DNA of 64,000 bases, from NCBI GenBank assembly GCA_965153455.1, contig OZ234493.1:30246213-30310212 (forward strand), in the 5' to 3' direction. Under the pieces are notes generated by a model. The model searched no databases. It saw only the letters and a list, made by a program, of their open reading frames with translations, and was not told where the DNA came from. Position 1 is the first letter of the stretch; every line of letters starts with the position of its first letter. The position numbers and the translations under genes were made by a program. The DNA is from Sphagnum compactum. Its lineage: Eukaryota. Below, one piece after another: positions 19,421-49,900 of the stretch.

Positions 19421-22106
19421 GTCTTCTTCCTATGGAATAATTGCCACTTAATCTACATTAAAAAAATTCCTTGGAAAAAAGGACTAGGCTACTTTGAAGG
19501 CTTGGATTAAAAGATTGACAACCCATTTGACCTTTGAATACTTCCTTGATGATTGCACATGGATGAGACATGGGTTGAGTTGGGAGAGGAAAGTGTGATC
19601 GACTTCGGCACAATAATCATTTGTAGGTATTACTACTTTTGAAAGTTCTGAAATTCTTAAGAACAAATCAACTGACAAGCTCAAAGGCTACCTAACATGT
19701 CCAAACCAGGTATCAAATCATCAGTTCACAATTGGTACGTGACCCAGTCTAGGCCAATTTAGGTGCATTTTGGAGGTTGCATTGAGTGTTTTGTAGGCCT
19801 TGCCAACCAAAGCAAGGAGGATATATTGTGTTTGGATTCACTATAGAGTATAGTAGCTTAAGGTATTTTGGCCCCTAGGTAATAATAGCTCTATTTTTAT
19901 ATGAGGATTTTTGAAAGATGATATTTTGACTTGTGGTGAAACTTGAGATCAGTTATAGAGTTATAATATCTCGAAGGATTTTGGTTTCTTTTAGGGGATT
20001 TTTTGAAGATTACATTTTTGCATGGCGAAATATTTGAGTTTCCATAATTCTTCTTTTGCCTTAAGCTACTTTTTAATGTAAATGGCAAGGCCACAATGTG
20101 ACACACCCCTCGTTTTTTCAATCTTGTGATATTGAAAATTTTGCCAAGTTTTTTTTTAAAAATAGCACAATTAGTTGAATTTACAATAGGGGAAAAAAAA
20201 ATCCAAAATGTTCCCATTCTTTTTATTGAAAAAGCAACACGATTTGTCGAAAAAGAATCACTCACTGCATTTGTGTAGAGTTGTGGGAGAACATATTTGT
20301 ACATATATATTCAGCACATGGAACCCATTGTTGCAATTTAATGTGCTCAATTTTATCTGGGTTTAGGGTTTGGCATTGTTGCAAGGTTCTATAAAGAAGA
20401 TGAAGGTGGAATATAATTGGTTTCATCTTAAATTTTTGTTGCCATTTTTTGTAATCATAATATTAAAACATGGCCCTAAGTCTATCATAATACATGCAAT
20501 AATAATATATTTTCTGATTTCAGTTTTTGTTGTCATTTGTTGGAATTGTAAATATTGAAATGTGTCCCTAGGTCTATCATATTACATGCCATAACACTTT
20601 ATAGTTACACAACACTCATTGTAGCTCTATTTAGCCAAATTTTCATCTTAATAAGGGTGATATTTGATTATTTTTATTCTAAAAAAATACATATATTTTA
20701 TTATTGGATCACACATCACATCAAATAAATGTGTTATTTCAAATAAAGGAAATAAGGAAAATAATTTCCTTCTGTTATTATTCAAAACCAAAAAAAGCCT
20801 CAAGAACACAATCACTTATTTTTTCTAGCTTGTTAACATTGAAATGGCTTGAACCTTCTTTTTTCTTAAACAGTGTGTTAGCTCTTTACCTTTGAAATAG
20901 TTTCAAATTTTGTCAGCCATGGAATTAGATTTAAATAAACTACAATTTAAAGTGATGAAAAAAGTTGACCATCCCTCATATAAGATGACTACCTATTTAA
21001 AACGCCAACACATGATATGTTAAATGTGAGGAAAAGTTTCTTTCAAAGTTTGCTTATAATTAGCCGAAAAGTGGTGTTTTGCAGTAGTTAAAACATTTTT
21101 ACTTTTTAAGTCTTAACCAACACATTTGAAGGCGTCTGTGTCAATTGATAACAATGGTGTTTAATTACCAATAACGGCATGACTCTAAGTGCCATTTGTT
21201 AACCAATCAAACACATTCCAAACCACATCCAACTTGCATTCTTTCTCAACATGCGTTCATGTTTCAAAAGATGTGCATGTCTGTGAATGAGGCTCCAATT
21301 AGGTGATCAACCCAAGGCCATTAACCCACACAAAACTTGTGGAGTCCATCAATGTGCAGTGTCAAAAAACTACACATTGATCACATAATTGTCCATTCCC
21401 AAAGTGTGAAGACAAACACCCATTGCTAAACTTGTGATATCTCAATTCTGAAAAACATCAATGAACTCAAAGGCACAAGAAATTGAGCAAAAGTTAAAAG
21501 AACTCACCAAGAAACTGCAAGCGCTGGTTGTCCGTCTGGCCCAATTGTCCATCTGGCCCAACCAAAATAAACCAAACAGCATACCAGTAGCTGTTTTGCA
21601 AGATACAATTAACATGAACACAAAATGACAAAAAACATTTATCTTAACAAAATAGATCTTGTTTTCCGAAAATTGTTACCATATCAGGAATCTCCATGTT
21701 CTCCCTGATCTGCCTCAATGCCTTCTTTGTAGTCCATCAGAAATTGAATCAACTGCAGTAAACAGCCCAAATCATGGATGTGTTGCAGAAAACTGTACCT
21801 GACATCCTCACAAGCTTCTTCAAGATACTGGATGTTGTTGACAAGTGCCTTCCACCTGGGATTTTATAACTGTTCTGAAAAATCCATTGAAACAATAATT
21901 GTGCTGTGGATGATACATACAGGATCCAGTACTCAAGAAAACCAATAACTGACCAGTATGGCCAGATGAACAGGGGAAGCTTTCAACCAAATCCAGCACC
22001 AAAGCTTGTTTGAAATAATGGAACTGTGACACAGCTAACTAATGTGGCAAGTAACCTGGCAATTCATGAAACTCATACATCTATGAAATTGAAGAGAAAT
22101 CTCAAA

Positions 22107-29966: not shown

Positions 29967-32230
29967 CAGTAAACTCTCTCTAAACTAATATCCTTGGGAC
30001 CAACCGGAAGATATTAGTTTATGGAGGATATTAATTTACACAAATTATATGGGGGGTAACAAAAATCATTCCGAAACCTGCCAGAGCAGCATGGAAGGTC
30101 ATGGAGGTTAGTAGAAGGTCATGGATCATTGGGGAAGGTAACGGAACCTTGTGGAGCTTGGTGGAGGATCAAAGAAGCACGTAGAAGATCATATGACATG
30201 AGTGGTAGAAATCTTGGCAGAAAGTGAGGTTGTGGAAAGCTGCACTCTGGGTACTCTCAGAATACCCTCCTTCGCTCTATAAAAAGGGTTGTGGGCAATC
30301 AGCTGGTCAGTCTTGTCCAAACCCTCTCCCCAAAAGCAAGAGCAGAACAATGCCGCAGAAAGGAACTTTTCATACCACTATGACGGACAAGGTCCGCGCA
30401 GCTCTCTGCCAGTACAAAAGAGACAATCCTCGGCTTTCACAGAAAGACCTGATCAAATGGCTCGAAGACAACCACAGTATCAAAGTTAGCCAAGCTACCA
30501 TCTCTACCACACTGAAACGGTCGGCTGAGATTCTCGCCAAGTTTGACAATGAGACCAACCTCAATGCCAAGCGCCAGCGGACAGTCAGGTACCCGGAAAT
30601 GGAGTCCGCGCTGGTCAAGTGGTTTAGGACAAACCAGGAGCGGGCAAATGTGAGTGGTGAGCTTGTCAGAGAGAGTGCAACGAAGATTCTGGATCGGCTC
30701 TATCCTGGGCATGAGCCCTTCGAATTTTCAAGTGGCTGGCTTGAGGCGTTCAAGTCCCGCCATGGCATTAGGTCCTACCGCAGCTTCGGCGAAAGTGGTT
30801 CTGTCAACATGGCTACTCTTGCCAACACCCTTCTAGCCATACGTGACGTCCTGGATCAGTATGCGTGGAAGGACATCTATAATATGGACGAAACTGGACT
30901 TTTCTATCGAATGCAGGTACTGTAAGTTCAGATTTGTCTACTATAAATGTCTAAACATGATATAACTGATTGTGATTGTTTTCCAGGCCGATAACTCTCT
31001 TGCAAGCAAGCAGCTCAAGGGCCGTAAGCAAAACAAGGAGCGGATCACTCTCGCCATCTGTTGCAATGGAGATGGTAGCGACAGGCTCCCGCTTTGGGTC
31101 ATTGGAAAGTATAAGAACCCGCACTGTTTCAAGAACATAAACAAGAACACGCTTGGGTGCCAGTACTGGAACAACTCCAACGCTTGGATGACGCGGGAAA
31201 TTTTTCTGGAGTGGCTCAGGGGGTTTGACCTCCATGTTTCAGGGCGTAGGGTCCTCCTCATCATGGATAACTTCAGTGGCCACATTCCCCTTGATCAGCT
31301 TCCCAACCACATCTAGCTGAGAAATACCACAGTCTTCTACCTGCCCCCAAACGCAACCTCGAAGATCCAGCCATGCGATGCTGGGATCATCCGCAGCTGC
31401 AAGGCGTACTACCGTCGTCACTTCAATCGGCTTCTTCTGCAGCGCTTGGAGGACAATGTCACCGACCCTGAGAAGATCGACATCCTTGCCATTCAGATGG
31501 TCGTTCGAGCCTGGACATACGAAGTGAAGCCGGAAACAATTTTCAACTGCTTCCACCACTGCAAGATCCGCTCAACAAAGGAGCCAGTCGTTGATGCCAG
31601 TGAGGAGTGCCCACTGGATTTAGAAGTCATCGAAGACCTCGAGTCGCAAATCCGGCAATTCCACTATCACAACCCAATGGACATCAGGAATCTGTTGAAC
31701 TACCCAGAGGAGTAGGTCACTACTTACACACTCGATGTGGACGACGTCATCGAGGATCAACTCCAGGAACGGTCAGGCTTGCAAGTGGAAGTCAACGACG
31801 ATGAGGCAGATGACAGCCAGGAGCTCCCTGTAGTGAGTGCTGCCGAAGCCTATAGAATGGTTGAGATGCTGGAGAGGTTCTGGATGCAGCAAGACAACTC
31901 GGGTATTCCATTCGTTGCTGCCTCACAGAAGATGAAGGACAGTGTGAGTATGATCAGGACAAAGCAGTTGGTACAGAAGAATATTGATAGCTTCTTCCAA
32001 CGCATCTAGCTTTGTACTTTCGAAGGTGTTTCCTCTAATTTCATCGTTTTTTTGGTGCCATATGTATGATGTATTAGTTTATAAAATGTTATGGGACCGG
32101 AAAAAAATATTGAATATCAGTTTATGGAGAATTATTAAATTAAATATGAGGCCCGCCACGGGCCTGTGCCCGCATAGTAGTTTAGAGAGAATATTAGTTT
32201 ACACAGTATTAGTTTAGAGAGAGTTTACTG
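29967..32230 (+). mobile_element. Full-length pogo-family (Lemi1/Tigger-like) DNA transposon, 2264 bp
   Basis: Perfect 24-bp TIRs CAGTAAACTCTCTCTAAACTAATA, flanked by TA on both sides, enclose a transposase. Confidence 0.96.
30350..32009 (+). pseudogene. pogo transposase (CENP-B-type HTH + DDE_1) with two premature TAG codons
   Basis: Exon 1 30350-30916, intron 30917-30986 (GT-AG), exon 2 30987-32009. Motifs FSSGWLEAFKSRH, YNMDETGLFY, IMDNFSGH and QPCDAGII. In-frame stops at 31314 and 31713, with no frameshift seen. Confidence 0.92.
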
Positions 32231-35078
32231 TATATGGAATTTAAGCATGCTACATAAGAAGGGCAACATTAAAAGGCAATAATCAAGAATAAGGAAGGAG
32301 AACTTTAGTAAAAATATCTTCTCCAATATATGTTCCACAAAAAACTTCTATTATGGATCAACCCTAACTTTTGGAGTAGTATGTACACCCCAAATTGTCC
32401 AAATATAAACATTTTTTATTCTTGAGAAAAGGTTTTTTTTCTTGTTAATCGATTTTGAACTAAAATTCGATCCAAGTTTACATTCAATTTCCGTGACCTA
32501 CATAAAACCATGCAAGGAACCTAAAGAATTATGTAACATTCTTTATCATGCATTTTTCTCAATTCAACTTTTTTGTCCTTAATCATTGTGATATGATAAA
32601 GAGGTGATTTGCTCATGGCATTTGTGAAACTATAAATCAAACCAAAATATATATATACAAGAGGTTAAGGTAAGCCTAACCACATAGTATTCATTATCTT
32701 TCCCCTTGCTTGACATTCAACCAATCCATGTTATGGCATGTTTGTGCATTCGACCTATGTCAACTATGTTACATCTTTAGAGGTATGTTTTAAGAACAAA
32801 TAACATAAATATCCCCTTTTAATTTTTCCAAGTTTTCCATTTTCATGACATATTGCATTTGAAACATGTAATGACACATCTAATTGAAATGGTAAACACA
32901 AACCTAGCTACATAAATTGAAAATATGTACATACAACATGCTAAGCACTTTAAAGTTGTGTAAAAGTTAATAAAATAAGGCAACATTATCAAGCTTGATG
33001 ATTATTTAAAATTGAAAAATAAGGTTGTCCACTTGACCAAGTTTGTTTTGATTAGGAATCAACACTTTAAATTTGCACCAATTGAACAAAATTTTCAATG
33101 CACATCAAATGAATTTTGCTTTTATACATTGTTGGCATATCTTCTACTTTAATCCACATAATGAAATCTAAACTCTCCTTTATTTAAATTTTTCTTTGTT
33201 TTATGGTCATACCTTTATTACAAACAATCAACCATGTTGCTTCCAAACCAAAAGTTCCACATGGCAATTTTGTGTTCATATCAAGTGATCTAATGTGTAA
33301 TGCATGTGCCACTTTTTGATTCAATTGAACAGTTATTGCAAGAAGTTAGTCAAAACTAATGAAGTGTGAACTTATATATATATATATAACTAATTAAACA
33401 AAATTACAATGAGGTTTCAATGTATTGTTGACAAGGTTAGATATAATGTGCATGTGAACATGCTCAAATTTGTAAAATACACACATCATAAGGCTTATAA
33501 AGAAGTCAAGGTAGTGAAGGTAGGACTTTGAGGTTGTTCAATAAGAGGTACAAATACTTGGTTAATGAAAAGAAGTTTGTTAAAACATCTTGGTGCAACT
33601 AAATTCTTTGGTCCACTCCTTGCTAGCAAATTGGTAATGGTTGTACTAGTCTTGTAAATGTTTTGGCAACACATTCTTGTTTGTTAGGATGTGCTTGTGG
33701 ACCTTGTTTGTCCTAAACTTTATGGGCACAACAAATGGGACTATTACTTTCATAAAACATTTAAGGTATGCTATTATTTTTTTGAATTAAAAACGTAGAT
33801 TTTGCTTTAAATTGTGTATAACTCGCATGTTTTTTTTGAGATGACTTCTTTTTAACAAATGTCTTTTTTTTTCTTAAACATGTAAATTATCGAAATCCAT
33901 CAAGCATACTTAACACCATGGAAATACCAACAAAATATTGACGGAAACTAATTTGAAAAGGTGGGAGATATAAAAGATAATGTCGTAACATTTGACAAAC
34001 ATTATAATTATAATAGCTCTTTCCTAACACTTAAACTTAATGATATACAAGATTTTAAACATGCAATTTAAATCAATAAAATGATGGACAAATGCACCAT
34101 GTAAGACTCACATTCCCAAACTAACCAATAAATATATAGGTGTTTAGATGTTAGGAAAGAACTATTATTGTTATTGTTTTTAGGTCTTTTTCTTGATCTC
34201 AATTTGTTGCTACTAGTCTTGTTTTGTTTATCATTCTTTATATTGCTCGGTTGTGGGTTAAATAGATTTTATGAGAAGGTTGGAGGAAGTTGCCAAACTT
34301 AATAATAATAATAACAATAACAACATTTGATGTGAACAAGCACTTTGTGACAAGATTAATTGTAGGATACCATTTAACTTTGTGCACCCCATAAATATCA
34401 CATGATTTTGTTATCTTAATGGCTACCACCATCCTTGAAGTTGCACTCCTACCCATTTTGAAGAAGTTGATCATTGCAGATAACAAAGTAAGTTTTCTTT
34501 TAATCACATGTAATCTTTCCTAAATCTGTTGTTAAATACTAAACTATCCATGCATCAAAATTCCTTCAAGTTCTTGATGATCATTTTATTTTTAATAACA
34601 AAATCATTTTTTTTCTTCCCTTCTCCTTTGAATGCATGGCTCATTATTATGTTTCCTTCCATCTTCATGAATTATGTTTACTTTCAAGAATTTCATGGCT
34701 GCAAACTTGATCGTCATCTACAGATTTTAACAGATTTGAAATCACCACCCCTTTGTTCCACGTTACACAAATTGGGAGGCCTTTGGTGTAAATAGTGGAC
34801 AACGAGCATTCAAGGTCAGCAAAGCCTGTTTGCAATGAAAATAGTTAGCAATGATCATGAATCTACAACATGGGCAACCAACCAACAAATTGTGAGTCAT
34901 TTTCTAACAAAATTGGAAACATTTGGGATTTTTTTTAATGTAATTAATTAGGATATTGGTTATGATGTTGCCAAAGGTATGTTACATGTTTTTGCATCTA
35001 CAAAAGGCATGTTCATCACAACTTTTATTGACTATCACCTTAATATGGATCAAGGTCTAATTGTTTTCAGCAATCCTA

Positions 35079-35776
35079 TCTTATATATAAAGTACCTTGT
35101 CCGTGCGTGCGTCCAGGTCCTGACAGTGGAGGTCTTGAAACCCAGATCCCAACTGTCCGTCCGTGGAGGTCCTGAAACCCAGATCGGGACCCGCCTGTCC
35201 ATCCGTCTGGTTGAGGTCCTGAAACCTGCCTGGCTCCTCTTTTCCGGGTTTTCGTGAAACCCGGCAGTTCTGTGCACGAAAACCCGGCAGTTCTGTGATT
35301 ATACGTATTTAGAGCTCAGAGTTCTGGATGGGTGGTTATGAGGATGAGATATCATGTATTTGTAGTTCCGTCCAATTAGGAGGAATGATTTGTGGATGAA
35401 ACATTAAAGATTTTGTAGTTTTGTCCACTTAGAGTTTTCGATGGATTGATTATGTGGATGAAATATTATTCCGTGCAATGAGCTCAGAGTTCTGGATGGG
35501 TGGTTATGAGGATGAGATATCATGTATTTGTAGTTCCATCCAATTAGGAGGAATGATTTGTGGATGAAATATTAAAGATTTTGTAGTTTTGTCCACTTAG
35601 AGTTTTCGATGGATTGATTATGTGGATGAAATATTCATGTATTCGTAAGTTCCGTCCAATTAGGAGTTCTGGATGGATGATTATGCAGGTGAGTATGGGG
35701 TTTTTTGGGGTCTCCTTTGGACTCCCAGTTTTTTTCTAGTGCCGTGTCGTGCCTTGCAGGCACGGGAGCCCACTAG
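35079..35776 (+). mobile_element. Non-autonomous Helitron A
   Basis: A|TCTTATATATAA start; end is the cgtgcc-ttgca-ggcacg hairpin + ggagccca-CTAG|T; internal ~170-bp duplication. Confidence 0.85.
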
Positions 35777-35788
35777 TCTTATATATAA

Positions 35789-36478
35789 CTAGTGGGTAAC
35801 CTGTGGCTACGCCACTCCAGCCACCCCGAACGCTTTGTGCTTTCATGTTTGGATTTGTAGCCAGGTTTGGCTAAATCTTCCTTCAAATAATTGCCCATTT
35901 TTTCCACATCTTCCCACAGATGATGGCCATTTTGGCTACAAACAAAAACAATTCGCTAAAAAAAAAAAACCCACTGGTGCTATTATTACCATATGGTTGA
36001 AGAATGGGTACCTTTAAAATAAATACACTTATTATTACATTTTCTTTCAAGGAGAGGTTTACAAAATTTAAAATAATAATAATACAATTAATATGATTAT
36101 TTTTGGGTGCACAAATAGACAAATCCATTTCAGAAATGGAGAAATCCATAGTTTTGACTCTTACCCAAAATTGGATCTGGACTTCAAACCCCAATCTTTG
36201 AATTCGAAGAACCTGGATTGAGACCTAGTTTGGGAACCTCAAGTTGCACGTGGATCGAGACCTGGACCTGGAGCTGAACTTGAAACCCCAATCTTTGGCT
36301 TCGAAGAACCTGGATTGAGACCTGGTTTGGGAACTTCAAGCTGCAACCGTGGATCTGGACTTCAAACCCTAAATCTAGGGTTTGAAGAAGAAGAAGAAGG
36401 TTGGGACCTGGTTAGGGAACCTGAAGTTTTGTCCACACAGACGTACAGACACCACCATGTTTGCTTTAATATATAAGA
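35789..36478 (-). mobile_element. Non-autonomous Helitron C1
   Basis: Minus strand A|TCTTATATATTAAAGCAAACATGG ... gtggc-gta-gccac hairpin + aggttaccca-CTAG|T. Confidence 0.8.
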
Positions 36479-36483
36479 TTCCT

Positions 36484-36762
36484 CGAGTGGTTGGTAACCC
36501 GTGGCTACGCCACTCCAGCCACCCCCAAGAAAAGGAGGGAGGACCCAAAAAAAACGAAAAAAAAAAAAAACACCTCCCTTCACTCCCCCGTCCGGTCCTT
36601 TCCCGCCCGTCCCCCCCCCCTGCTGGCCCCCCCCTGCTGCCGCTCAGTAACTTCTTAACTGCCGCTCAGTAAAAAGTAACTTAGGTAAATTACGTAAAGG
36701 AAGGTAACTTCGAAAAGGTAAAAACGGACAGACGGACGGACAGACACCATGTTTGTAATTAT
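36484..36762 (-). mobile_element. Non-autonomous Helitron C2 (same family as B), 5' end clipped
   Basis: Minus strand ataattacaaacatggtgtctgtccg...ttttaccttttcgaagttacc... ends gtggc-gta-gccac gggttaccaacca-CTCG. Confidence 0.75.
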
Positions 36763-36838
36763 CTAGTGGGTAACCCGTGGCTACGCCACTCTAGCCACCC
36801 CGAACGCTCTGTTAAGCTTTATTGTCTGCACGATCATG

Positions 36839-39800
36839 TTACAACACCTCTGTGTAAACAACATTGCGAGTGTACACACCGGCAGGTGCATCTTCATGAG
36901 CATCCTCCCACCCATCCGTAACCAACAGTTTCACGCCCTCAGGGCACCCAATGCGCGACATGGCCACATACAACTGGCCATGTGTAAATACAGGCTTGGG
37001 CAGAAAAATGTCGACCATCTTCAATGTCTGCCCTTGCGCCTTATTGATGGTCATGGCAAATGCAGGGCGCACAGGGAACTGCCGACGGCGCAAAGTGAAA
37101 GGCATTCGTTCAGTGTCTGAAGGTGTGATGCTTAACCGTGGAATGAACACTCGTTGGCCCTTTGCAGGACCTGTTGCCACCTCTGCTTCAATGACATGCT
37201 GCATGAGTTGAATGACAATGAGCCTGGTACCATTAGCCAGGCCGTTGGTCATGTTGCGTAATAATATGATGGGACAACCCTCCTGCAAGTGCAGTTCATG
37301 GGGTGGTACGCCCGAAAAACTAAGTGTGTTCAAAAACTCAGTGGGGTAAATGCCATGTTGCTCCCCATGCACCACAGAATCCGCACTGTAATATACGCAG
37401 TGCTGTGCGGGCGAGCCATCGTGCTTTGTGAATGCATATTTGTCATTGATGAGTTTATTGAGTGCATCCACATCTTCGTTCAAAGGTGTAAGAATTGCAC
37501 GCTCAATGATGTATGCAGATCTTGTAGCATACTCAACAATAGATGACAGAGCGCCATACACTTCTTCAATCAAATCTGCCACAATAGGGCCATTGCAGCA
37601 CATGTCATGAGGAATAAGAATGGAGTCTTCACCAACAGAAGGATACACGCGCTCTGCGCCCTCCCCCACACGTTGCAAGTAATCAGCAAATGCCTGCAGC
37701 CGTGTGGCATCTGCCTGTGCATGCGCGCCACCCTGAGCCAGCAACCTCTGCACGCGCATGTTGGTGTGCAGCTTGAATACACGCACATGTTGCCATATGC
37801 TGGAACGGTTCAAAGCTGCACCGACAACATCTCCCCTGGTGCCGCGAGGCACAACAGGCAAAATTTGCCGAAAATCGCCGCCAAACACCACAACCAAGCC
37901 GCCAAAGGGCAGGAACTTGAATGCTGGGTTAATGACAGCCATGATGTCCTGCAAAGACCTGTTGACAGCCTCAAAAACATGCCTGTGCATCATGACAGCC
38001 TCATCCCACACAATGAGCGCAGCCGCTTGCAAAAGTGTTGCCAGCTCGGAGTCCCTACTGATGTAGCATGTGGACGTGATGTTGAGGCCTTGCACAGGGA
38101 TCTTGAAACGTGAGTGTGCAGTGCGTCCTCCATCCAGCAGCAATGCAGCAATGCCAGACGATGCCACAGCAATAGCGACCCGACCCTGTGCGCGCACGGT
38201 GCTCAACAAGCAACTGTAGAGAAAGGTTTTGCCAGTGCCGCCAAGGCCATCGACAAAAAATGCACGGCAGTCGACAGCGGCCATGACATTGTCATAGACA
38301 GCCCGTTGCTCAGGGTTAAGTTGCGGCACGCGCTCATCTCGTATGGCTGCTTGCGTTGCCACATCATACCTGGCAATTTCGTCTGCCACCACAGCACTTG
38401 CAGGTTGGGCCGTAGGCGTCGGCAAGCCAAATGCTGCCAAGCCTTGGCTGCTGTTGAGGTGTGCCAAGTGTAGCGCCAACTCCCGCAGCACCATGTCCCG
38501 GATGGCAGCATCGAGTTGCCGCGCTGGCTCGCCCTGCACGTTATAGGAGCACACACGACATAGTGAGCATTGAGCGCCGCACAACATGCAAACCATGACC
38601 ATGCAAAACCGCAAGGCAGGCTGACATGCAGAGCCATACACGGGCAGAGCTGAGCACCAACCTGGCGTGCTTGATACAGAAAGTCTTCTGCCATGTCTTC
38701 CTTGAAGCGCTCCCATAGAGCTAATGGGTTTGCAACATCATTGAACACCAACAAGGCAGCAAATAGTGCCCTGAGACATGAGGCACTGGCCATGTTTGCA
38801 GCCTCTTCCATGCACTGGGCCCACTCAGCATCGTCCTGTAGTAAACCACGCTGCAGACATGCTTCTTTGAAAGATGCGTGCTGCGTGGGATGTTGCAAGT
38901 GCCTGTTGGTGCATGCTAGGTCCTCAAAAGACGTAGCCGCAGGCACGTGATGTAGCAAAAGACGCAAGAAGTACCTCTCCCCCTCGGAGGGTTGCACAAA
39001 ATACATGCGGCCGACAGGCAGCAGACCTGGCGTCCGTGTGCGGAGTGCCCATTGCTTTTCCTTCTTTTTCCATGTGGCAATGCGTGGAAAGTCATGGTAA
39101 AGCGTGTTGAAAGCCAAGCGCAATGGTGCAGATGGATTGAGATGTTCCCGTGCTGTTTTGTTAAATGCAAACCATGCAGTCAAAGTTGTGTGAGGGTTCC
39201 GGTTAAGTACGGCCGCAGCATCAGTGCCCTCTTGAAACAGGATGGTCTGACGCCCTTTCAAGTGCACAGCAAGCCGAACGACATTGGGGTGCTCCTTGTG
39301 CAGATCAAAGCCATACAGACGGTGGATGGCCTCAAAAGCCGACACATACCGACCGTCTTGGTAGATCTTGATCTCATCCCGCATGCATGGCTGAGCGAGC
39401 GCAACGCCATCAGGTGCAGCAGCGTCCACCGGGCCAACGTCTACCTGTGCACGGTCGTGGCCCTTGTAGACGTACTTGTAGAGGTATTTGACAGCCGCGA
39501 CAGAGGTGCAGACCTCCACGTTGATGTGGCAATTGAAGAACAGGGACAGGTACGGGTTGTAGGGCACCACCCAACGGTTGTCAAAGGCAAACCCACCCCT
39601 GCAGCAATAGCAGCCAAACATCAATTGTTACGTGAGCGGTACCACAGGTCAATAAACGCAAACATGGCAGCATAGTCGTGCATGTTGTCAGTCCAAATGC
39701 ATGGTCCTACTGCTAGCACACTTACCGTTCAAATGTGCGGCCATCATCCCGGCAGCGGTATGTTGGGTAGGAGCCGGTGGTGTCGGTGGTGTGCTCTGTG

Positions 39801-42181
39801 AAGGCCTTAGGGTAGCCTTTTGAACAAACACCGTCAACCATGCAAGTGCAATGTGGGTTGATGGTGCCACAGGGGCCATGCACCATGCATCTTGTAACGA
39901 CTTCAAAAAGAGTGGGGTGTGCATCCTTATCAGGCAACTCTGCAGACACCATGCGGTCGTATTCATCGGGCCCTCGTGGTTTGTGATCGGAGTGCAGAAT
40001 GAGCAGAATGTGTGCATGGGGCAGGCCTCTCTTCTGCCACTCAATGACATGAATGTTAGCCACCACCTCGCCAAAAACGCCCTTCTTCAAAAGCCTGTCC
40101 AGCAAATGCTGTAATTTCCCAACAAAAACACGTGTCACCAAATCAGGGCGGTCATTGGCAATCTCGCCGGGCTTCAGCGCACTGACAATCTCTTCCCACT
40201 TAGGGTTGCAGGTCATGGTGATGAACAAATCAGGCTTGCCATATTGGCGGACAATGGCCATGGAATCTTGGTACAATTGAGCCATGTGTCGGTGTCCACC
40301 AGTGAATGAAGATGGCAATACAATGAGCTTGCCCAGGTTGTCGATGTTGGCGTCGTTATTGGCAACAGCATCAGCTACGCCACCATAAATTGCAGCATGC
40401 AAAGGGCCCTGGTTGTTGCGTATGTAAAACAGTCGTTGTGATTCCACTTTGCTGTATTGGTCAACACCCCACTCTTGATACAAACGTTTGCCATACACAA
40501 AGAGGGCGTGTGATGTCGGGTTCCTATCGTGCATGTGATAGCAAGCCCACTCCCGTGCAGTGATTTTTTTGCGTTGTGCAGGTTGTGCTGGTCGTGCATC
40601 TGTTGCAACATGTTCAACATCACCTTCCTCCTCGCTGCCATCATCCTGTGGAGGTTATGGTGGGCTAACAGGGGCAACAGCAGCATGGGGCATGTATGGC
40701 TGCCAATCGAGCTCACCATGAGGATGGAACAACACAAAGTGCAGCGGATCGTAAGCAGGGTGCAAATCACTAATCCTCCATAGCTCGCCGCCGCGTGCAC
40801 GCACTCTGATGTCCCTGCCTGTAACCGGCTCGTCACCGCCACCTGTGGAGGAGCACCAACATTTATGTCAACGAATGAGGAACATTGCATCAAGTGAGCG
40901 ATGGCAACAAACAAACAGCACATCAGCACACGTTGCTGAAGAACCTCACCTGGCAGCAGCCCAGCCACTTCGGGCGCGGTAGGAGCATTGTAGCGGCGCT
41001 TGTCAACGTTGCCGTCGACCCTGATGACAACTTCCCATTGAGGCAAGTCGTGTGCGGGCATGTCCATGACTTGTTTGAAACGTTGCACAAATGTGTTGTG
41101 ATCATGCAACATTTGTTGTAGCCCCACCAAAGTTGGCTGATGCAAAGCAGCGCCCGTAGCACCCAAAGCTGCAAGGCGTGCTGTGACTTGTGCATCCATG
41201 GAATCAATGATGTACAGCTGGGCGAATTGTGGCACATCATGCTCGGCAGGCTGCAAAGGCCCCAGCAAGTGATGCACAGCCCCTTTGATGGCAATCATGC
41301 TGATCCCTTGTTCCGGGGAATGGATGTGTAGGCCCGTTGAGGCCATCTGCAATGCAGAGTTGTATGCACGAATGTTCAACCTGAAATCCTTAGTGGTAGG
41401 TGACAAAGGCTGGTGCTCACTGGGCACACTGGTGAGCAAATCTCTGAGTGGCTGAGGTGCAGGGGCGGGGAAAGCATTGCTCAACCCAGACATCTTGCCA
41501 CCGCCGCAACACAAAGTGGTGCGCTTTTTCTCGTGCTGAAAGCGGAGTGCATTGCAGTGTGTGCACTTATGTGACATGGCACCCAATGAGTGTACCACCA
41601 ACCCCTTCCACCTCATTCGCAGTGTGCAGGGCTTGCTTCCCAGCTCGCCGGGCGCGAGCCCCTCGCCTCGCTGCTTGTCGCTGGTTAGAAGGCTCGGCTA
41701 CCCTGGCAGCACGCCTGGCAGAGGCATCCCGTTCCCTAACTGCCTGCTGGTGTTCAGCAGGCTGGGCTGCCCTGGCAACACGCTTGGCAGAGGCATCCCG
41801 TTCCTTGACTGCCTGTTGCTGTTCAGCAGACTGGGCTGCCTTAGCAGCACGCCTGGCAGAGGCATCCCGTTCCCTAACTGCCTGTTGGTGTTCAGTAGGC
41901 TGGGCTGCCCTAGCAACACGCTTGGCAGAGGCATCCCGTTCCTTGACTGCCTGTTGCTGTTCAGCAGACTGGGCTGCCTTAGCAGCACGCCTGGCAGAGG
42001 CATCCCGTTCCCTGACTGCCTGTTGTTGTTCAACAGACTGGGCTGCCCTGGCAGCACGCTTGGCAGAGGCATCCCGTTCCCTGACTGCCTGTTGTTGTTC
42101 AGCAGACTGGGCTGCCCTGGCAGCACGCCTGGCAAAGGCATCTCGTTCCCTGACTGCCTGCTGCTGTTCAGCACTCTGCAT
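36839..42181 (-). pseudogene. Helitron RepHel (HUH Rep + PIF1 helicase), ~1660 codons, near-intact
   Basis: Exons about 42181-40950, 40842-39726, 39598-38662 and 38533-36839 with GT-AG introns. Rep motifs KPDLFITMTCNPKW, IEWQKRGLPHAHILL and KYLYKYVYKG. Helicase motifs GLGGTGKT, IVWDEA, GGDFRQILPV, FAMTINKAQGQT and HGQLYVAMSR. One frameshift (~41603) and one stop (40655-40657). Start codon uncertain. Confidence 0.95.
41696..42178 (-). repeat. 69-bp coding tandem repeat x7 (23-aa unit) at the RepHel N-terminus
   Basis: QSAEQQQAVRERDASARRAARAA-type unit repeated seven times. Confidence 0.95.
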
Positions 42182-42747
42182 TGTACACAAAGTCCGGGAA
42201 CCATGACACACCTAAGCCACACCCATTATGTGTGTGAAGCTCCACCCGACAACCCCCTCCTCCTCCTCCTCCTTGCCTCCTGCATTGCTGCAACCCACAT
42301 CAATTCTTTTTCTCTTTCCTTCCTTCCTTCCTTCTTTCCTTACTGCATTGCCACAACCAACAACATCAATTCTTCTTGACAACCCATTACCAGATGTCTG
42401 ATTCTTGACCTACTTCTTATAACAGATTTGATTTTTTGATTCTTGAGCAAGTCTTACAGATAGATTGCAATGCAATATGTGTTATGAAAGCTGTAGTCAT
42501 AGATCAACTTACAGAAGCCAAATCAAGCAGAAGCCAAATCAAGCAGAAGCCAAATCAAGCTTAGCAAGCTCAACAGGATCAGCCTCACTCAAGAGATGAT
42601 GCAAATGTATCTTCACCATATATGAATGAAGAAGAAATGGGTCCCAAAAGATTCTGACCAAAAAACAAATTCTGATATAATAATACTTGTGGCAGTCTCT
42701 TGTGAATGGTCGCAGCCAGAACGACAATTGGGTGCAGTGCCTTAATT

Positions 42748-43221
42748 GGGTGCCCATGACCTTCGGACACTGTGAAGTCCCCCGGTTTCTTTGAAAAGGG
42801 CGGAGAAAAAAAAAAGAAAAAACCCTGGTATTAACCCTGGGCAGCCCGCCGGAAAAGGGCGGAAAAAAACAAAAAAAAAAAAACCCTAGTATTAACCCTG
42901 GGCAGCCCACCGGAAAAGGGCGGGGAAAAAAAAAAACCCTAGTATTAACCTTGGGCAGGTCCGGCGCCTACACAGCGAACCCGCCGGAAAAGGGCGAAAA
43001 AAAAAAAAAAAAAAAAAAAAAAAACCCTGGGTTTAACCCTGGGCAGCCCGCCGGAAAAGGGCGGGGAAAAAAAAAACCCTGGTATTAACCCTGGGCAGGT
43101 CCGGCGCCTACACAGCGAAAAAAAAAAAAAAAAACCCTGGGCAGCCCGCCGGAAAAGGGCGGAAAAAATATTTAGTGGGTGCCCGTGACCTTCGGACACT
43201 GTGAAGTCCCCTGGTTTCTTT
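42748..43221. repeat. GC/poly-A array bounded by 45-bp direct repeats resembling Helitron 3' ends
   Basis: About six copies of accctgggcagcccgccggaaaagggcg(a)n. gggtgccc.tgaccttcggacactgtgaagtcccc occurs at 42748 and 43177. Confidence 0.85.
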
Positions 43222-44532
43222 AAACCAAGAGGGACACACAAAGGCGCAAAGCAACCTTTTTTTTTTTTTTTTTTTTTTAAATTTCCCAATGAAAACATAC
43301 ATGGTGAACAAATCTGGCTATAAACCAAAATATGAAGTACACAACTTTAATCATCCTTCTATATTTTTGGCTATAGACTAAAAACCAAATCAAAAAAATC
43401 TGGCAAATTTTACTAAATTTTTCCCTTCACTTCTGGCTATTGAAAACACTTTTAAAATCATTTGAATTTTTGAATTTCACCATCAAGGAAAAGGCTGCTT
43501 GGAACCCATGTTTCTTAAGAGAGAGAGTTTTGTGAGGGTTCTGGGGCCGGTCACCAACAAATTTTTGAAACTCTTTAGTTTGCAACAATGGATATCGGGT
43601 TGCAAATTGAGGACTGGACTTCTTCATGTGGGATATGTTCCAAATTGGCCACTAAAGGCCGGAAAATAGATCCCTGGACATCCCTTTTTGTTTTTTTGTT
43701 TTTTTTTTTGGTGGTGGGTTTTGGTTGACACAATTTGTCATGGGCGGAAAACACAGACAGGCCGGAAACAACAATAAACTTAGCCCTTACATTTCAGTCC
43801 TGTATAGGCCCAAATTTCCAGGCTTGTGGTGTTTATTTTAGACCTAGCAGCGATTCCGAGAGCCACCCCAGTCCTTCCTTGATTGGAAAGCCGGCCTTCG
43901 ACGAAATCTAGGAGGAGACTACAATGGGGTTATCTATCTTGGAACTGTCCAAAGCTTGATTATTATTATTATTATTATTATTTTGGGTGATGGACCAATC
44001 ATGGATGCCCCCATCACAGAAGGAAACAAAATAAAATTGAACTTTGGGGGTCCAATTATGTGCAACTAATTAATACTGAAAAGGGCTTTGTGGGGGTTTT
44101 TTTTTTTTTTTTTTTTCTATTGTGTCATTTTGACTCCTTGATTCTAACTTAGGTGCTGCTCAAGGCAAGCCAGTTTCATTCAAGTGGGATCCACAGTACT
44201 CTACGCTGAAGGCAGTCTTCTGAAGTTGCTGGCTAAGCTCAACACAAATGAGATTAGTAATAATCTTCACCCGGAACCAGTTCTTGTCATGTCACGGACG
44301 GACAGACAGACCAAGCAAGTCTTGGAAATAGCTGCTGACGGGTTTCATGGTTGGGTATGAGTAGGGTGCCCACATGACTGACATTTTGCTTTGAAAAATA
44401 TTTGTAATCAGCTTGTCAATATCTGCTGACTCTTCAAAGTTTCAAGGAGGGATCCAACTTTGCATATTCCTTTATGAGTTCAAAGTGTTGGAGCAAAGTC
44501 TCCTGAATGATCTTCTCTCCAACACTTTGAAC

Positions 44533-45357
44533 TCATAAAGGCATATGCAAAGTTGATGTAGCTTTGTTGGAGTCCATAGCTAACGCCTCCAAATTGGCTG
44601 AAGATCCAAATGCTGGAGGTGCGTGCAAACTTGGTACACATCATCATGGATGGCACTTGGGTGAGTAAAAACATTTCTGGACACTGACACTTTAAAACTG
44701 CCATACCCAAATGAACAGCTAGTTCACTTTGGCATCCCAAGTGGAATTTCTTCAGTTTAGTAAAAGCCTGCATATAGCAATGGTTCGTTGCAGGAATGAA
44801 ATCACAGTGAAAATAGCTCATATTATATAGAGGACTTACTTGAGTTTAGAAAATGGTCGACTGGAAACTTCCTCATCCTGTGACTGGGGACTGGAACTTG
44901 GTGATTTGAATGCCTCGCCTGGAAGAACCACCAGAAGGAGCACATTCCTTCCCTTCCATCAGGCTACTACTACTGCTACTACTACTACTACTATTAGTCT
45001 TGTGGGCAACAACTCCCTGAATCCAAAAGATCTACACACTGCACATCATCAAGCAAATCTACACAGAAATCTATCAATCAAAGCAGAGACCAAGAAGAGA
45101 ACAAAAGAAGAATAAACACAAGCTTACATACATGAACTGCGCGCACATGGAAAGTTGGCTGATTCTCTGGATCCTTTGCATTTTGGAGCAAGGACTTGTG
45201 GGTTAACACATCTTCTGCTCTCTCTGCGTTTACATCTAACGCATATCTGCAGGAGGGCATACAGCAGCAAAAGTGTAGCAGTGATTGCTTAGTTCTCGTG
45301 AGCAGCAGCAATGACACCCACCACTACACCCAAGCTCTCCAAAATGTAACCCTATAC

Positions 45358-45418
<61 letters not shown>

Positions 45419-45731
45419 AATTTCGACCCATCCAAGATATTCACACACGCGCGCACACACTGTGTGTGTGTCTCTCTCTCTTTCTCTCTCTGAATTTCCA
45501 CCCACCCAAGATCTTCACACATCCCCTCTCTCTCTCTCTCTGTAACCTTGAATTTCTAGCAGGCACCCAAGATCTTAACACATGCGAATTTGCAAAGGGA
45601 ACCCAGAAAGGGCGGCGGCAGAAACAGGAAGGAAGAGAGAACCCAGACCTGGTAGGAAGCTGATTGAAATGCGCAAGAAGCTCGTCCGCGAAACCGGGTT
45701 GGTCCGCCACCGGATTCCCCCTCTTCTTCAA
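44533..45731 (-). pseudogene. N-terminal fragment of an STY8/17/46-like ACT-domain Raf-like kinase gene, introns retained
   Basis: Exons ~45731-45649, 45246-45132, ~44931-44840 and 44629-44533 give [37 protein letters not shown]...FHVRAVH|...|LHAPPAFGSSANLEALA. No start codon, ACT domain or kinase domain was found. Confidence 0.85.
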
Positions 45732-45919
45732 CGCTGATCACATCTAGATAAAATTATTGCGGTCGCCATTCGTCGTCGTCCTCCTCCTCTTCCATCTAGG
45801 GACTTCGATTTCAAGACCTGGTCCTGTCCGTCCGTCGAGGTCCTGAAACCAAGATCGGCACCTGGACGGACAGACAAACGGACAGACGGACAGACACACT
45901 GTTGTAATTATATATAAGA

Positions 45920-46387
45920 TTACAAACATGGTGTGTGTCCGTCTGTCTGTCCGTTTTTACCTTTTCGAAGTTACCTTCCTTTACCTAATTTACCTAAGTT
46001 ACTTTTTACTGAGCGGCAGTTAAGAAGTTACTGAGCGGCAGCAGGGGGGGGCAGCAGGGGTGGGGCGGGGCAGCAGGGGTGGGGGGGGGGGGGGGGGGGG
46101 GCAGCAGGGGTGGGGCGGGCCAGCAGGGGTGGGGGGGGGGGGGGGCAGCAGGGGTGGGGCGGGCCAGCAGGGGTGGGGGGGGGCTAGCAGGGGTGGGGCG
46201 GGCCAACAGGGGGGGGGCAGCACAGGTGGGGGGGGGGGGCCAGCAGGGGGGGGACGGGTGGGAAAGGACCGGACGGGGGAGTGAAGGGAGGTGGTTTTTT
46301 TTTTTTTTTTTTTTTCGTTTTTTTTGGGTCCTCCCTCCTTTTCTTGGGGGTGGTTAGAGTGAAATAGCCACGGGTTACCAACCACTC
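45920..46387 (+). mobile_element. Non-autonomous Helitron B (its first 12 nt lie at 35777-35788); G-rich interior
   Basis: Inverted homolog of C2 with an expanded (gcaggggtgggg) array. It ends atagccacgggttaccaaccactc. Confidence 0.8.
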
Positions 46388-46935
46388 CTATATAATTACA
46401 AACATGGTGTCTGTGCATCTATCTATCTTTGATGAATGAATTTTTTGGATGATGGTGGTGAAGGTGGTAGTTATTCGTCCAAACCCTCTAACTGCTGCTC
46501 AGTGTTTCTGATTGGCCCATCATAATCACTGGTCCATGTGGGGCGGGGGGGCCAGCAGGGGGGGCCAGCAGGGGTGGGGGGGGCCAGTAGGGGGGGGCCC
46601 CCATCATAATCACTGGTCCATGTGGGGTGGGGGGGGGCCAGCACGGGGGGGGGGGCGCGGGCGGGAAGGATCGAGCCACGGTCTCATGTCCCTGGGTTTT
46701 GTATGTGGGGTGGGGGGGGCCAGCAGGGGTGAGGGGGTCAGCACGGGGGGGGGGGGGGGGGGGGGCCACGGGCGGGGAAGGACCGGGCCACGGTCTCATG
46801 TCCCTGGGTAACAAAACCATGGCCTTTGTTGGGCAGGGGAGTGAAGGGAGGTGTTTTTTTTTCTTTTTTTTTTGGGTGCTCCCTCCTTTTCTTGGGGGTG
46901 GCTGGAGTGGCATAGCCACGGGTTACCTACACTCG
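46386..46935 (+). mobile_element. Non-autonomous Helitron G; G-rich interior
   Basis: Starts tcctatataattacaaacatggtg and ends gtggc-ata-gccac gggttacctaca-CTCG|T. Confidence 0.75.
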
Positions 46936-49900
46936 TATAATAAAAGACCATATGCCTAGCATGTTTTTAGTCAGTGGTTCTATCATATACTTGTCCTAAC
47001 TTGTCCTATAAAAATAATTAATAAGTAAAATATGAATGGAAGTTCGTGTTTTGGACACTTCAAAAAAATAGATTATGAACATTTATGTTGTTTATTGTTT
47101 TGTTGTGATATAGAGTCTAGTATCTAAATATGGTGAAGGTTGGTTTTATTGACCTAGTTGACTAGGGAAGTAAAGATATAAAACATTGAAAATCAAATTA
47201 AGAAAAAATTAGGGTTAAGTTATAAAACATTGCAACTTTGGGTCTTTTTTCAACGAAACATATAGTTTGTGATATAAATCACTCACTTGTGAAGGTTTGT
47301 AAGGTTGATTAAGGGGATACAAACCTTCACACTTGTGAGTGATTTATATCACAAACTACATGCCTAGCTAGAAAAAAATTCCACTGTCAACATGTCCATG
47401 GATGTAAATTAAAAAACAGATATGTTCAGAATAACATAACCATATAAAGATTGGCATTGTCAAATCACCGTGCCTTGTGACAAAAAGCTTTTAAACTAGC
47501 ACTAGACAAGATGAGAAGTCCTTTGTTCCAATTCATTTTTGTTATTTATTATGTTTTTCAAACGTTTACACATTCACAACTTTGTAAGATTTTTCAAATG
47601 AAATTTGATCACTAATCATGACATTTATTTTTGTAAATGTAGATGGGGGAAGTTGTGCATGGACTAGGTCACAATTTGAATAATTATGTTTACAATGAAA
47701 ATTTATCATGATGTAGTTAAATGGAGCAAGTGGACACATCAAATCAAGTTCAATTAGGCATGTACTTGTTTTAGGTTGGGCCATGAAAAGGAAAAGAAAC
47801 ATATAGGACCCTTGATGGATAGTATCTTAAAAACATTGAAACAAAATCATCGCATCAGTAAATTGGTGTCTACTTATGTTTATCATGCATCAAGGTTTCT
47901 TTAAATTATTATATTTTGTTAATTATTTTAAAATACACTTTTTAAATCTTCAAAACACATGGATTCATATATTGAATGTTGCATCTTGTAATGTATTTTG
48001 TCATGTATTTTTTTCTCACAATTTTCTTGCACTTCAATTGTTGGTGATTTATAATTTGGTAATCACTGGGGTTTGTGAATACCAAAATGGTAGTCGCAAT
48101 GAATAAATTACTGCATTTTTTGTGAGAAAAAAATGTCTTTCAATTTGAAGCATATACAATATCACAAAATCAACAAATCACATCAGCGTTTTGTTAAGCT
48201 TCAAAAAAATACACAATTCCTTCAATGATTATTTATTGGTATGATTCTAATCAATCTTTTAATTAAAATACCATATTTTTACATATATAATTAGTTTTAT
48301 TGATTTGTTGTTTTGACTTTGCTTACTAAAGAGGCTTTAATTTTGCAATGTTTTGATTTTAAAATGGGGCAATAATGGTCATTACATAGTTTATAATTAA
48401 GCTATGTAAGACATATGTTCCATCATGCTACAAAAGCATAATGGACCATTTGGGGGTTCTTGACATTCCAAAAAACTCCAATTTGCACAATTGGAAAGTG
48501 TAGTTCCAAAGCCACGTAAGGTTTTTGTTTCCATGTTTGTGATGTGCAAAAATAATAATTTAAGTTTTTTTAATTGGCTTTTAACAATCATAAGATGGAT
48601 TTCATGTGTGCAATGACCTTACTTTTCCAATATATTGTTTTGTTGCAAGGATAGGTTACTTACCATCAAGTGTCAATCATATGGTGGTTTTTAAAGAAAA
48701 AAGGCCAAAAGATTATTGGACCAAACAATATGATTTACAATATCATGTATTGCACTTTTTAAAATTGGAAAAATCAACCATTTCAATAGACAAAGGAATA
48801 TGTCAATAGTAGTGATGTAATACCTCATGATTGTCTTGAAGATTTATGTACTGAGGAAAATTGGTTGAGCAAAATACAAATGAATGCAAGCATGGGCTCA
48901 CAATGGGAAGCTAAAAATTTTGCGTTTTTGGTTGGAGGAAGAATTTATATAAAAATGGTGCTTATGGAAGGTATAAAAATTAGTCCTTGATGTTAAGGTT
49001 TTGGCAAATGAACTATTAATGCGTTTTAGATAATAATTTAAGATGATTTATTTACATCAATGATATGTAAGTATGTTCATCATGATGTTGAAGTCACAGG
49101 AAAAGCTCAAGGTTTTGCCCACAAATTCACTACTTATTTGAAACCATCATTTCCAATAGTGATGGAGGAGCTTGAATGTAGAAAGGCAAGACTAAATATC
49201 AAGGACAATGAAGGTTGGATTGTGAAAGGATCTCCTTTCATAACATTTGCATTGACACAAAACTATGAAGTCAAGGTCCATCAAGATAAAAACAATGATG
49301 GCATTTGCTTCATCTTAGGGTTGCGAAAAGATAAATTTTTATTTCATTTATATTAAATTATGTTATTTAATTAAAAAAACATAATTTGATGCTGATTTTT
49401 TGTATGGTACAAGAACTATGGAAGATCACATGAAGGAGAGGCATTTTTTGCTTGCTAGTGTATGAAATTAAATTTTAAAGCTAAAGTGGAACTGTTGTCA
49501 TGTCACATGTTGATCAAGTATATTATTGTACATTAACAAATCAATGTGATGGCCAATTTGGTATGGCATTTTTCCAAAAAACAACAATTTAAAACCATCT
49601 TAATCTTTTTTTTATTCATGTTATAATGAATAGAGTGAAGCATTTGATGAAATACTTTGATAATACCAACATTATTAAAATAACTATGTTGAACAAGTCT
49701 AAAATCTCTAACCCTTTTGAGGTTGAAATTTTCCTTTTACATAAAAATATGCAATTGGAGGTTATAAAGGTTGTCAAACCTTTTTTTGGAATTTTTGAGG
49801 TATTTTGATGCATGACATGCTCACAACATGATGATGATTAACTTTATGAAGCAAGGGTGGGGGTTGTGTGATGTGTGATTGGAGAAAGAACTTGTGTAAC

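Follow-up and report, generated by a model that had tools for sequence, protein, structure and literature searches.

In a stretch of 64,000 nucleotides of the Sphagnum compactum genome (GenBank assembly GCA_965153455.1, contig OZ234493.1, positions 30,246,213 to 30,310,212 of the forward strand), which we refer to as the window, positions 35074-46935 (11,862 nt) are occupied by a compound cluster of canonical Helitrons that consists of six units arranged on three levels. The block is polymorphic as a unit, being either present or absent in its entirety at a host A|T site, and we infer that it moves as a composite; the tower may have grown at this site or may have arrived pre-assembled. In its complete form, i.e., as a compound of six units that insert between A and T, run from TC to CTAG or CTCG and together sit at the host site GCAA|TATAAT, this reading is on balance probable. 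Structures of this kind are known, publications having already described self-insertion, multiple 5' termini and tandem Helitrons, and the block adds a further case to them.

The outermost level is a shell of type C, a non-autonomous Helitron in host DNA that is split after its nt 5. Its 5' stub TCCTA (35074-35078, plus strand), which the empty-site joint described below identifies as the first 5 nt of the insertion, is separated from the rest of the element (46389-46935, plus strand), where a hairpin and the end CCTACACTCG are directly followed by a host T. When TCCTA is joined to 46389 onward, the alignment yields a 5' end that equals the restored start of element B at 25 of 26 positions. 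On the second level, elements A and B are lined up head to tail after nt 5 of C. Element A, a non-autonomous Helitron of 698 nt (35079-35776, plus strand), has a TC start, a GTGCC..GGCAC hairpin and the end CCCACTAG, and its CTAG directly abuts the 12-nt 5' stub of B (35777-35788, plus strand) in a head-to-tail junction. B is split after its nt 12; in the rest of it (45920-46388, plus strand), a G-rich minisatellite has expanded, the hairpin is degraded, and the end reads CTCC, which differs from CTCG by one letter. The third level is a reversed string of 10,131 nt, H1-X-Z, inserted in B after its nt 12. Read on the minus strand, H1, a RepHel-coding Helitron of 9,157 nt (36763-45919), starts with TC at 45919 and ends with CTAG at 36763-36766, next to which there is A and not T. 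It is followed by the B-like, non-autonomous fragment X (36484-36762), which is devoid of the first 8 nt of the family 5' end and has a CTCG end, by a non-canonical 5-nt filler (36479-36483, AGGAA on the minus strand) between this CTCG and the TC of Z, and finally by Z itself, a non-autonomous Helitron of 690 nt (35789-36478) that extends from TC at 36478 to CTAG at 35789-35792, with T next on its own strand. X is an inverted copy of B, and the arms of 147 nt and 86 nt, both 94% identical, flank H1.

The units are genuine canonical Helitrons, and all features that characterize this group were found: Rep and helicase (RepHel) domains, a TC 5' end, a CTRR 3' end, a 3' hairpin and insertion between A and T without target-site duplication, the CTCG of the C/X subfamily being a non-CTRR variant. 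H1 contributes an open frame with a PIF1-type helicase domain (36839-38737, minus strand; PF05970, 3.8e-72; PF21530, 4.9e-16) and one with a Rep (HUH) domain (39722-40654, minus strand; PF14214 Helitron_like_N, 5.7e-59). TC, then T or C, then TATA forms the 5' start of A, B, C, Z and H1, while X is clipped, and a motif scan of the 64-kb window placed all four TCTTATATA starts as well as five of five matches to the 3' hairpin core of the family inside the cluster. A, Z and H1 end in CCCACTAG after the hairpin; X, B and C share the hairpin and end in CTCG, CTCC and CTCG, respectively. The stem comprises 6-7 bp (GTGGCT..AGCCAC) and lies 14-16 nt from the 3' end. Only the hairpin of A folds better than shuffled sequences (z -3.4), five of the six ends being no better than shuffles, and the evidence for the hairpin is the recurrence of its exact pattern in at least 120 metagenome contigs, not folding energy.

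These contigs provide an independent sample of insertions. An exact-pattern scan of public metagenome contigs with the family hairpin retrieved at least 120 loci amounting to 681 kb. They contain 122 3' ends, four of which are without a recognisable terminus and one of which is too short; the rest represent 100 unique flanks, with CTAG in 78 cases, CTCG in 11, TTAG and CTTG in three each, CTAA and TTCA in two each and TTCG in one. A CCTACACTCG end followed by T stands beside unrelated flanks in nine loci (L012, L027, L034, L065, L076, L089, L090, L105 and L110). CTCG is thus a genuine terminus of the C subfamily, and the right end of C at 46935 is therefore real. Once B is taken to end at 46388, the remainder of C starts at 46389 and TCCTA restores its 5' end, so that no orphan piece is left. 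The block might alternatively be parsed with C intact from 46386 and TCCTA as an orphan, a reading that we set aside as less economical. Canonical junctions accordingly comprise those between host and C, between the C stub and A, between A and B (CTAG|TC), both edges of the insert in B, and those between B and the remainder of C and between C and host.

A first-pass annotation of the window had already read this region as a series of Helitrons inserted within the first 5-12 nt of other Helitrons, and it had derived two joins from hypothetical deletions. The first of these proved correct. Deletion of 35789-45919 (10,131 nt) puts the 12-nt stub 35777-35788 in front of 45920, and the 5' end of B restored in this way equals the first 18 nt of H1 at 45919 (minus strand) and aligns position by position with the starts at 46386 and 36762. 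On the minus strand of the 10,131-nt insert, the TC of H1 stands beside A at the start and the CTAG of Z beside T at the end. The clipping that had been described for the element at 36762 (minus strand) was also found, the first 8 nt of the family 5' end being gone exactly where the CTAG of the 9.2-kb element abuts.

For the second join, deletion of 35079-46935 had been proposed to restore a Helitron that begins with TCCTA plus TATAATAAAAG and ends near 47499. We aligned contigs of four public runs that contain the left flank (X1, X3, X5 and X8) to positions 34300-47700; X5 carries organism label A and stems from another sample, X8 carries organism label B, and window DNA is also present in runs labelled moss metagenome. 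The contigs join 35073 to 46936 instead. A contig of 5,505 nt from X5 and one of 4,248 nt from X8 pass directly from 35073 to 46936, with 255 and 204 letters, respectively, on the shorter side. In an X1 contig, this joint is present as well, although the left flank there amounts to only 26 letters. The 11,862 nt that are skipped have TC at their start and CG at their end, and the joint can be shifted by one letter, with A|T on both sides. The empty site thus reads ...GCAA|TATAAT... and shows no target-site duplication; it lies at the 98.9-99.0th percentile of the target matrix of the family described below. As 35073 joins 46936 in the empty allele, TCCTA belongs to the insertion and 46936 onward is host DNA. 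The supposed Helitron at 46936-47499 is indeed a single-copy host flank, in which the right half of the target begins with TATAATAAAAG and which one contig each of X5 and X8 enters from the left flank. Its summed contig depth (2-39 in 47263-47700) resembles that of the left flank (4-37), compared with hundreds to 31,026 inside the block. The degenerate hairpin that had been noticed near 47499 is an inverted repeat at 47245-47376 (47-nt arms, 81% complementary, 38 nt apart) in this single-copy flank and is not part of a Helitron.

The intact outer element, whose absence the first-pass annotation had itself named as evidence against its proposal, therefore does not exist. What stands of that proposal is that insertions occurred within the first 5-12 nt of Helitrons, namely after nt 5 of C and nt 12 of B, with an outer element different from the one proposed. 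In the empty allele of X5 and X8, the whole block is absent, with the joint at 35073|46936 and not at TCCTA|TATAATAAAAG. Canonical outer termini combined with presence or absence as a unit (X5, X8, X1) is the behavior expected of a composite element that moves as one unit. The filled left junction was found in X1 and X3, in contigs that come from the left flank and end at 35103/35104; these ends are uninformative about any repetition of the TCCTA|A junction, as the copy number of A suffices to explain the breaks. No empty-site joint was present among the contigs of X3, which do contain the filled left junction, and missing cover proves nothing in this case. X1 shows both forms, i.e., the filled left junction and the 26-letter empty joint, and a heterozygote, a pooled sample or somatic excision are possible sources.

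Several points weigh against the compound, nested reading of the block. The CTAG of H1 is followed by A, compared with T in 98 of 98 sample insertions. Fragment X is without its first 8 nt, no matching stub occurs anywhere, and its CTCG runs into the 5-nt filler. B has to end in CTCC, a terminus absent from the 100 unique sample ends. Of the junctions in the filled form, independent contigs support the left outer one only, and no second copy of any block-internal junction was found in the 681 kb of sample loci, where junction-spanning high-scoring segment pairs were short AT-rich or terminus-to-terminus similarities. The sample loci were selected for the family 3' end and metagenome assemblies break at repeats, so that counts are distorted. 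Scars such as those at H1|X and X|Z would be expected had H1, X and Z been joined at an earlier time and entered B together.

X5 and X8 lack exactly the segment from 35074-35075 to 46935-46936, and no intermediate allele appeared in the four runs. These two observations lead to a scenario to which we assign a substantial but not preponderant probability: an 11.9-kb composite, already nested and equipped with the TC and CTCG of C, may have transposed once into GCAA|TATAAT, its nesting history having taken place elsewhere. The exact absence of the block and the lack of intermediate alleles are in line with such a one-step arrival, as is the presence of A beside the TCCTA stub in the filled alleles of X1 and X3. 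Furthermore, two inner junctions are scarred, in contrast to the canonical outer ones (A|TC and CTCG|T), the degraded hairpin of B favors read-through, and composite mobilisation from the leftmost 5' end has been proposed (PMC5148889). A composite that moves as such should, on the other hand, recur with its internal junctions, and these were not found again in the 120 loci, a small sample from other samples. The flank differs from the window at 0 of 774 letters in X1, 11 of 744 in X5 and 14 of 417 in X8, and the divergence of the latter two allows time for several events; moreover, four runs are few, and rare alleles are invisible to contigs.

The same scars might also stem from mis-joined repeats or from recombination between copies, which would affect above all H1|X and X|Z as well as the inversely oriented X/B pair. 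On the two sides of H1, X and B form inverted copies with 94% identity, two junctions are non-canonical, independent contigs confirm no more than the outer left junction, and structural variants abound, as other H1-like copies in X1, X3 and X8 skip 42279-45769. Nevertheless, the outer edges are backed by both empty and filled alleles in independent runs, the halves of B and of C fit to the base, and an architecture of stub, full element and rest of resident was found independently in a metagenome locus (L054, duplicate L067). We therefore regard an artefact of assembly or rearrangement as very improbable and retain the compound reading of the block.

In order to place the nested junctions in the context of the target choice of the family, insertion statistics were based on 98-99 unique flanks of the metagenome sample and a target matrix was built from 95 flanks; 103 de-duplicated loci (588 kb) with 108,473 A|T site-orientations served as the control set. 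The base after the 3' end is T in all 98 ends with a credible terminus. A occupies position +9 in 76 and position +10 in 67 of the 98 flanks, and TATAA starts at +5 or +6 in 17 flanks. An A|T followed by three or four arbitrary bases and TATAA thus characterizes 17 of 99 flanks, compared with 557 of the 108,473 site-orientations (0.51%), an approximately 33-fold enrichment. On the opposite side of the elements, all 16 recognised 5' ends in the sample loci read TC, then T or C, then TATA, and 13 of them are preceded by A at -1; among the remaining three are two head-to-tail junctions and one ambiguous case. In locus L058 (also in L082), two 3' ends from different Helitron families meet tail to tail, and a palindromic ACTAGT gives one CTAG to both.

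Insertions at the 5' ends of resident Helitrons are a recurrent event in this sample. In L054 (and its duplicate L067), a clear case, host DNA is followed by a 7-nt stub, a full Z-type element, i.e., a homologue of Z, and the rest of the resident, so that both halves of the resident are present. A clear head-to-tail case is found in L027, where a CTCG 3' end abuts a TC start, and in L082 the CTAG of another family abuts a TC start, with F2-type and Z-type neighbors. Probable cases are L092, with a 21-nt 3' fragment ahead of a Z-type 5' region, and L002, a degenerate head-to-tail junction outside the 98. Depending on whether counting is strict or lenient, two to four of the 98-99 unique insertions hit a 5' end. 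The zones 0-14 of the 16 recognised 5' ends contain 138 of the 108,473 A|T site-orientations (0.13%; weighting by the matrix raises this share to 0.17%), from which 0.12-0.16 events are expected; the observed two to four correspond to a 12-32-fold excess (binomial P 0.012 to 9e-6), a figure derived from two to four events in a selected sample in which an unrelated repeat is equally hot. As the loci over-represent Helitrons, the estimate is conservative. A BLAST search anchored at 5' ends, performed with overly strict filters to find interrupted 5' ends, returned 10 intact ends and nothing new. Candidate reverse-orientation nests in L065 and L047/L063, where a short 5' stub stands in reverse complement behind a 3' end, were left uncounted, because their other half lies off the contig and, by a rough estimate, about 0.6 chance matches are expected.

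There are 16 (TA)≥3 tracts in Helitron 5' zones and 301 elsewhere, and just two flanks begin in one of the 301. The possibility, raised beforehand, that 5' ends are struck no more often than any (TA)n tract is thus not what the sample shows (two hits on 301 tracts vs. two to four 5'-end hits). A generic AT-rich or (TA)n preference, with a chance pile-up at a TA-rich spot, neutral retention in junk DNA and no special role of termini, is rather unlikely. It is in keeping with the strong general half-site in the sample, with the position of the host site itself at the 99th percentile, with the same kind of AT-rich preference in Helraiser (PMC4778049) and with the fact that the evidence for enrichment amounts to two to four events. 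It does not fit with the distribution of the hits: while the 301 non-Helitron tracts took two, the 16 5' zones together with the occupied ones took two to four, and hits in Helitron DNA are located at termini, not in bodies. Apart from the 5'-end cases L054 and L092, a long Helitron match occurs in one flank only, that of L058, where it abuts a 3' terminus; the flank of L118 contains a 30-nt match inside C. Furthermore, independent nests are found at nt 5, 7 and 12 of three different residents.

The opposite extreme is the proposal of the first-pass annotation that the family specifically targets its own 5' terminus. The recurrence of 5'-end hits and their 12-32-fold enrichment speak for it; against it, at least 94 of the 98 insertions lie elsewhere, and a repeat outside Helitrons is at least equally hot; 5'-end hits are recurrent and enriched, yet specific self-targeting is an overstatement. 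A site-specific element would place most of its insertions in one target, and the family places two to four of 98-99 at Helitron 5' ends. An evolved preference of the transposase for resident Helitron 5' termini as a landing pad, a putative safe haven with putative disabling of the resident, is accordingly distinctly unlikely. It would be in agreement with the enrichment, with four junctions of the window at which a resident 5' end is canonically contacted, namely after nt 5 of C, between A and B and at both edges of the insert in B, and with an enrichment above the prediction from the measured half-site, as expected if the protein binds the resident left end. In addition to the at least 94 insertions outside Helitron 5' ends, it is contradicted by the occupancy of 5' ends in the loci, which is as low as 3 of 17 unique ends, two of the three having been brought in by selection, and by the non-existence of the outer element that had been its key witness.

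The repeat just mentioned, R, has 11 unique copies in the loci and the window, among them those at 16132-16192 and 19790-19861 of the window; the loci concerned are L001, L002, L003/L011, L013, L062/L104, L065, L068 and L105. Three different Helitron 3' ends have entered R at exactly the same A|T, and a further insertion is found 8-9 nt from this position. Four of the 11 copies are occupied, which is at least the occupancy of Helitron 5' ends (3/17), and two of the four insertions were not brought in by the 3'-end selection. R ends in a hairpin with a 7-bp stem (CCTTGCC..GGCAAGG), and the shared insertion point lies about 27 nt upstream of it. The family therefore has sharp hot spots beyond the matrix, among which its own ends are not unique.

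Between these two positions, we tentatively consider left-end-directed targeting, which we hold to be possible though doubtful: the transposase would bind resident left ends beyond what the motif provides, thereby generating nested and head-to-tail composites that transpose as larger units, and the 11.9-kb block would be a recently mobile product of this process. Self-targeting, and with it the mechanism set out below, is weakened by repeat R and by the A|T sites of Helitron 5' ends, which occupy the 58th to 90th percentile of the matrix, with one at 98.5. As these sites are only middling by the matrix, the measured motif does not explain the enrichment, which depends on two to four events. 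The idea that the target half-site is a copy of the family's own 5' end gained little from the matrix, in which the position-0 sites reach just the 78th-90th percentile.

Judging from the target statistics and from work on Helraiser, the HUH/Pif1 transposase of the family would cut single-stranded DNA between A and T and would prefer an A/T-rich right half-site with T at +1, A at +9 and +10 and, in many cases, TATAA from +5 or +6. Within its first dozen nucleotides (TC, C or T, TATATA...), a Helitron of this family would offer several A|T sites on both strands, and this segment may at the same time serve as the binding and cleavage substrate of the transposase itself. The IS200/IS605 family (IS608) uses a single-strand HUH transposase whose target is the sequence beside its own left-end cleavage site, a 4-nt sequence that is recognized by base pairing. 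This bacterial system is a precedent for a target-like left end, and in the family studied here the resemblance between target and 5' end is loose (78th-90th percentile). Termini would then receive about 10-30 times as many insertions as expected from their share of A|T sites and would still represent a minority outcome of 2-4% of insertions. Strikes at position 0 would give head-to-tail pairs and those at positions 5-12 nests. Nested units may travel together if transposition starts at the outermost 5' end and passes over 3' signals that are weak or mutated, and such joint travel would account for the clean outer junctions of each layer, the scarred H1|X and X|Z and the appearance of the block as one insertion allele.

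Most elements of this picture have counterparts in the literature. Self-insertion, composites and several 5' termini in front of one 3' terminus have been described (PMC5148889), including a case in which the insertion point lies 2 bp upstream of another element's partial 5' end, and the same paper cites tandem Helitron insertions in bat, Drosophila, rice and maize. PMC5876387 likewise refers to head-to-tail junctions and tandem arrays, A|T preference and tandem arrays are also reported in PMC13286980 and PMC12001565, and local amplification of one Helitron subfamily at subtelomeres has been observed (10.1101/2024.11.21.624632). The closest likeness is found in FoHeli of Fusarium oxysporum and three tandem copies in Metarhizium acridum (PMC5148889), where insertion likewise occurred in or beside the 5' end of another element. 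FoHeli also shares with the block short duplicated 5' pieces before a full element as well as nesting of autonomous and non-autonomous elements and in opposite orientation. The fungal elements are non-canonical, Helitron2-like, possess terminal inverted repeats and use other targets, whereas the elements in the window are canonical; beyond FoHeli, the window adds a three-level stack, an empty allele and a frequency count.

In the tandem arrays of maize, rice, bat and Drosophila (PMC5876387 and PMC5148889), a 3' end abuts a 5' TC just as it does at the junction of A and B and in L027 and L082. The published arrays mostly consist of copies of one element and are attributed to rolling-circle concatemers, while the neighbors in the window (A and B) and in L082 (F2-type and Z-type) are of different subfamilies, so that insertion at an A|TC boundary or composite formation fits better than concatemers. 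Helraiser (PMC4778049) resembles the family in its A|T target without duplication, an AT-rich preference that is strongest beside the transposon 3' end, a left end that is rich in A and T where it borders the cleavage site, alternative 3' ends with different tetranucleotides, and read-through. It differs in that general AT-richness is reported, with no positioned TATAA at +5/+6 or A at +9/+10 and no mention of resident ends in the portion of the paper covered. A literature search, which did not extend to maize and plant-centromere papers, found no count of hits on the first dozen bases of resident Helitrons.

With regard to its coding capacity, H1 is 93.7% identical to its relative in L072 over 1,906 nt and 93.1% identical to that in L029 over 1,813 nt. 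Comparison with contigs and loci revealed a 2-nt deletion at 38547-38552 (minus strand) that causes a frame shift between the Rep and helicase parts: two extra letters behind 38549 are present in contigs of all four runs and also in L072 and L029, and the frame map switches at this point. One letter at 41606 is missing from the contigs of all four runs. Relative to the majority of copies, H1 thus has a 2-nt deletion and a 1-nt insertion. Going by its reading frames, this copy is frameshifted and would have to rely on other copies for transposition functions. Mismatches between runs and window show G for A at 53 places (X1) and C for T at 43, compared with 14 and 7 in the reverse directions, a bias consistent with C-to-T decay of the window copy.

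The stack probably has further layers, as H1 probably carries additional nested or captured DNA. Contigs of X1, X3 and X8 join 42278 to 45770, i.e., other H1-like copies are devoid of 42279-45769 (3.5 kb). This segment holds pieces at 42742-42795 and 43171-43224 that resemble the 3' end of another Helitron family, A-rich repeats with lengths of 61-140 nt, an interval of raised depth (42793-43239) and minus-strand open frames at about 44480-44845. In the upstream part of the H1 coding region, seven tandem units of 69 nt that are 68-92% alike occupy 41602-42247, where long open frames overlap on both strands. Internal repeats also occur in the non-autonomous units. Element A, the member of the highest-copy family of the cluster (summed contig depth up to 31,026 in run X1), contains a 156-nt direct duplication that is 99% identical at a spacing of 168 nt (35312-35635), and the number of repeats varies in the A family, copies in the runs skipping 166 to 273 nt within this interval. 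The minisatellite of B (46025-46290; period about 19-20 nt) is about 180 nt longer than that in its inverted relative X (36587-36640), and C carries a related G-rich array with 83-84-nt repeats.

Elsewhere in the window, TCCTATATA occurs only at 9623-9640, preceded by A and followed by plain (TA)n without Helitron-like sequence, and is probably a chance occurrence. About 4 kb to the left of the cluster, an open frame at 30209-30925 with a Tc5/pogo-type transposase DNA-binding domain (PF03221, 2.3e-16) marks a transposon relic. Pfam scans of 10 other open frames gave nothing beyond the Tc5-type helix-turn-helix domain and a weak YegS_C match.

Helitrons capture and shuffle DNA and in this way reshape the genomes of plants, animals and fungi; the origin of composite and chimeric Helitrons is debated, with rolling-circle concatemers, read-through and self-insertion as the candidates. 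The locus described here is a clean three-level example with an empty allele, and the sample provides a first rough rate at which a canonical family lands in the first dozen bases of another Helitron, i.e., 2-4% of insertions or 12-32 times the expectation. In stacks of this kind, annotation tools in which the closest TC and CTAG are paired would misidentify every unit. Should the excess be borne out across the genome, left-end recognition in target choice would be indicated, along with a route to composites that move together; if it fails, the cluster would be an ordinary by-product of an AT-rich target preference.

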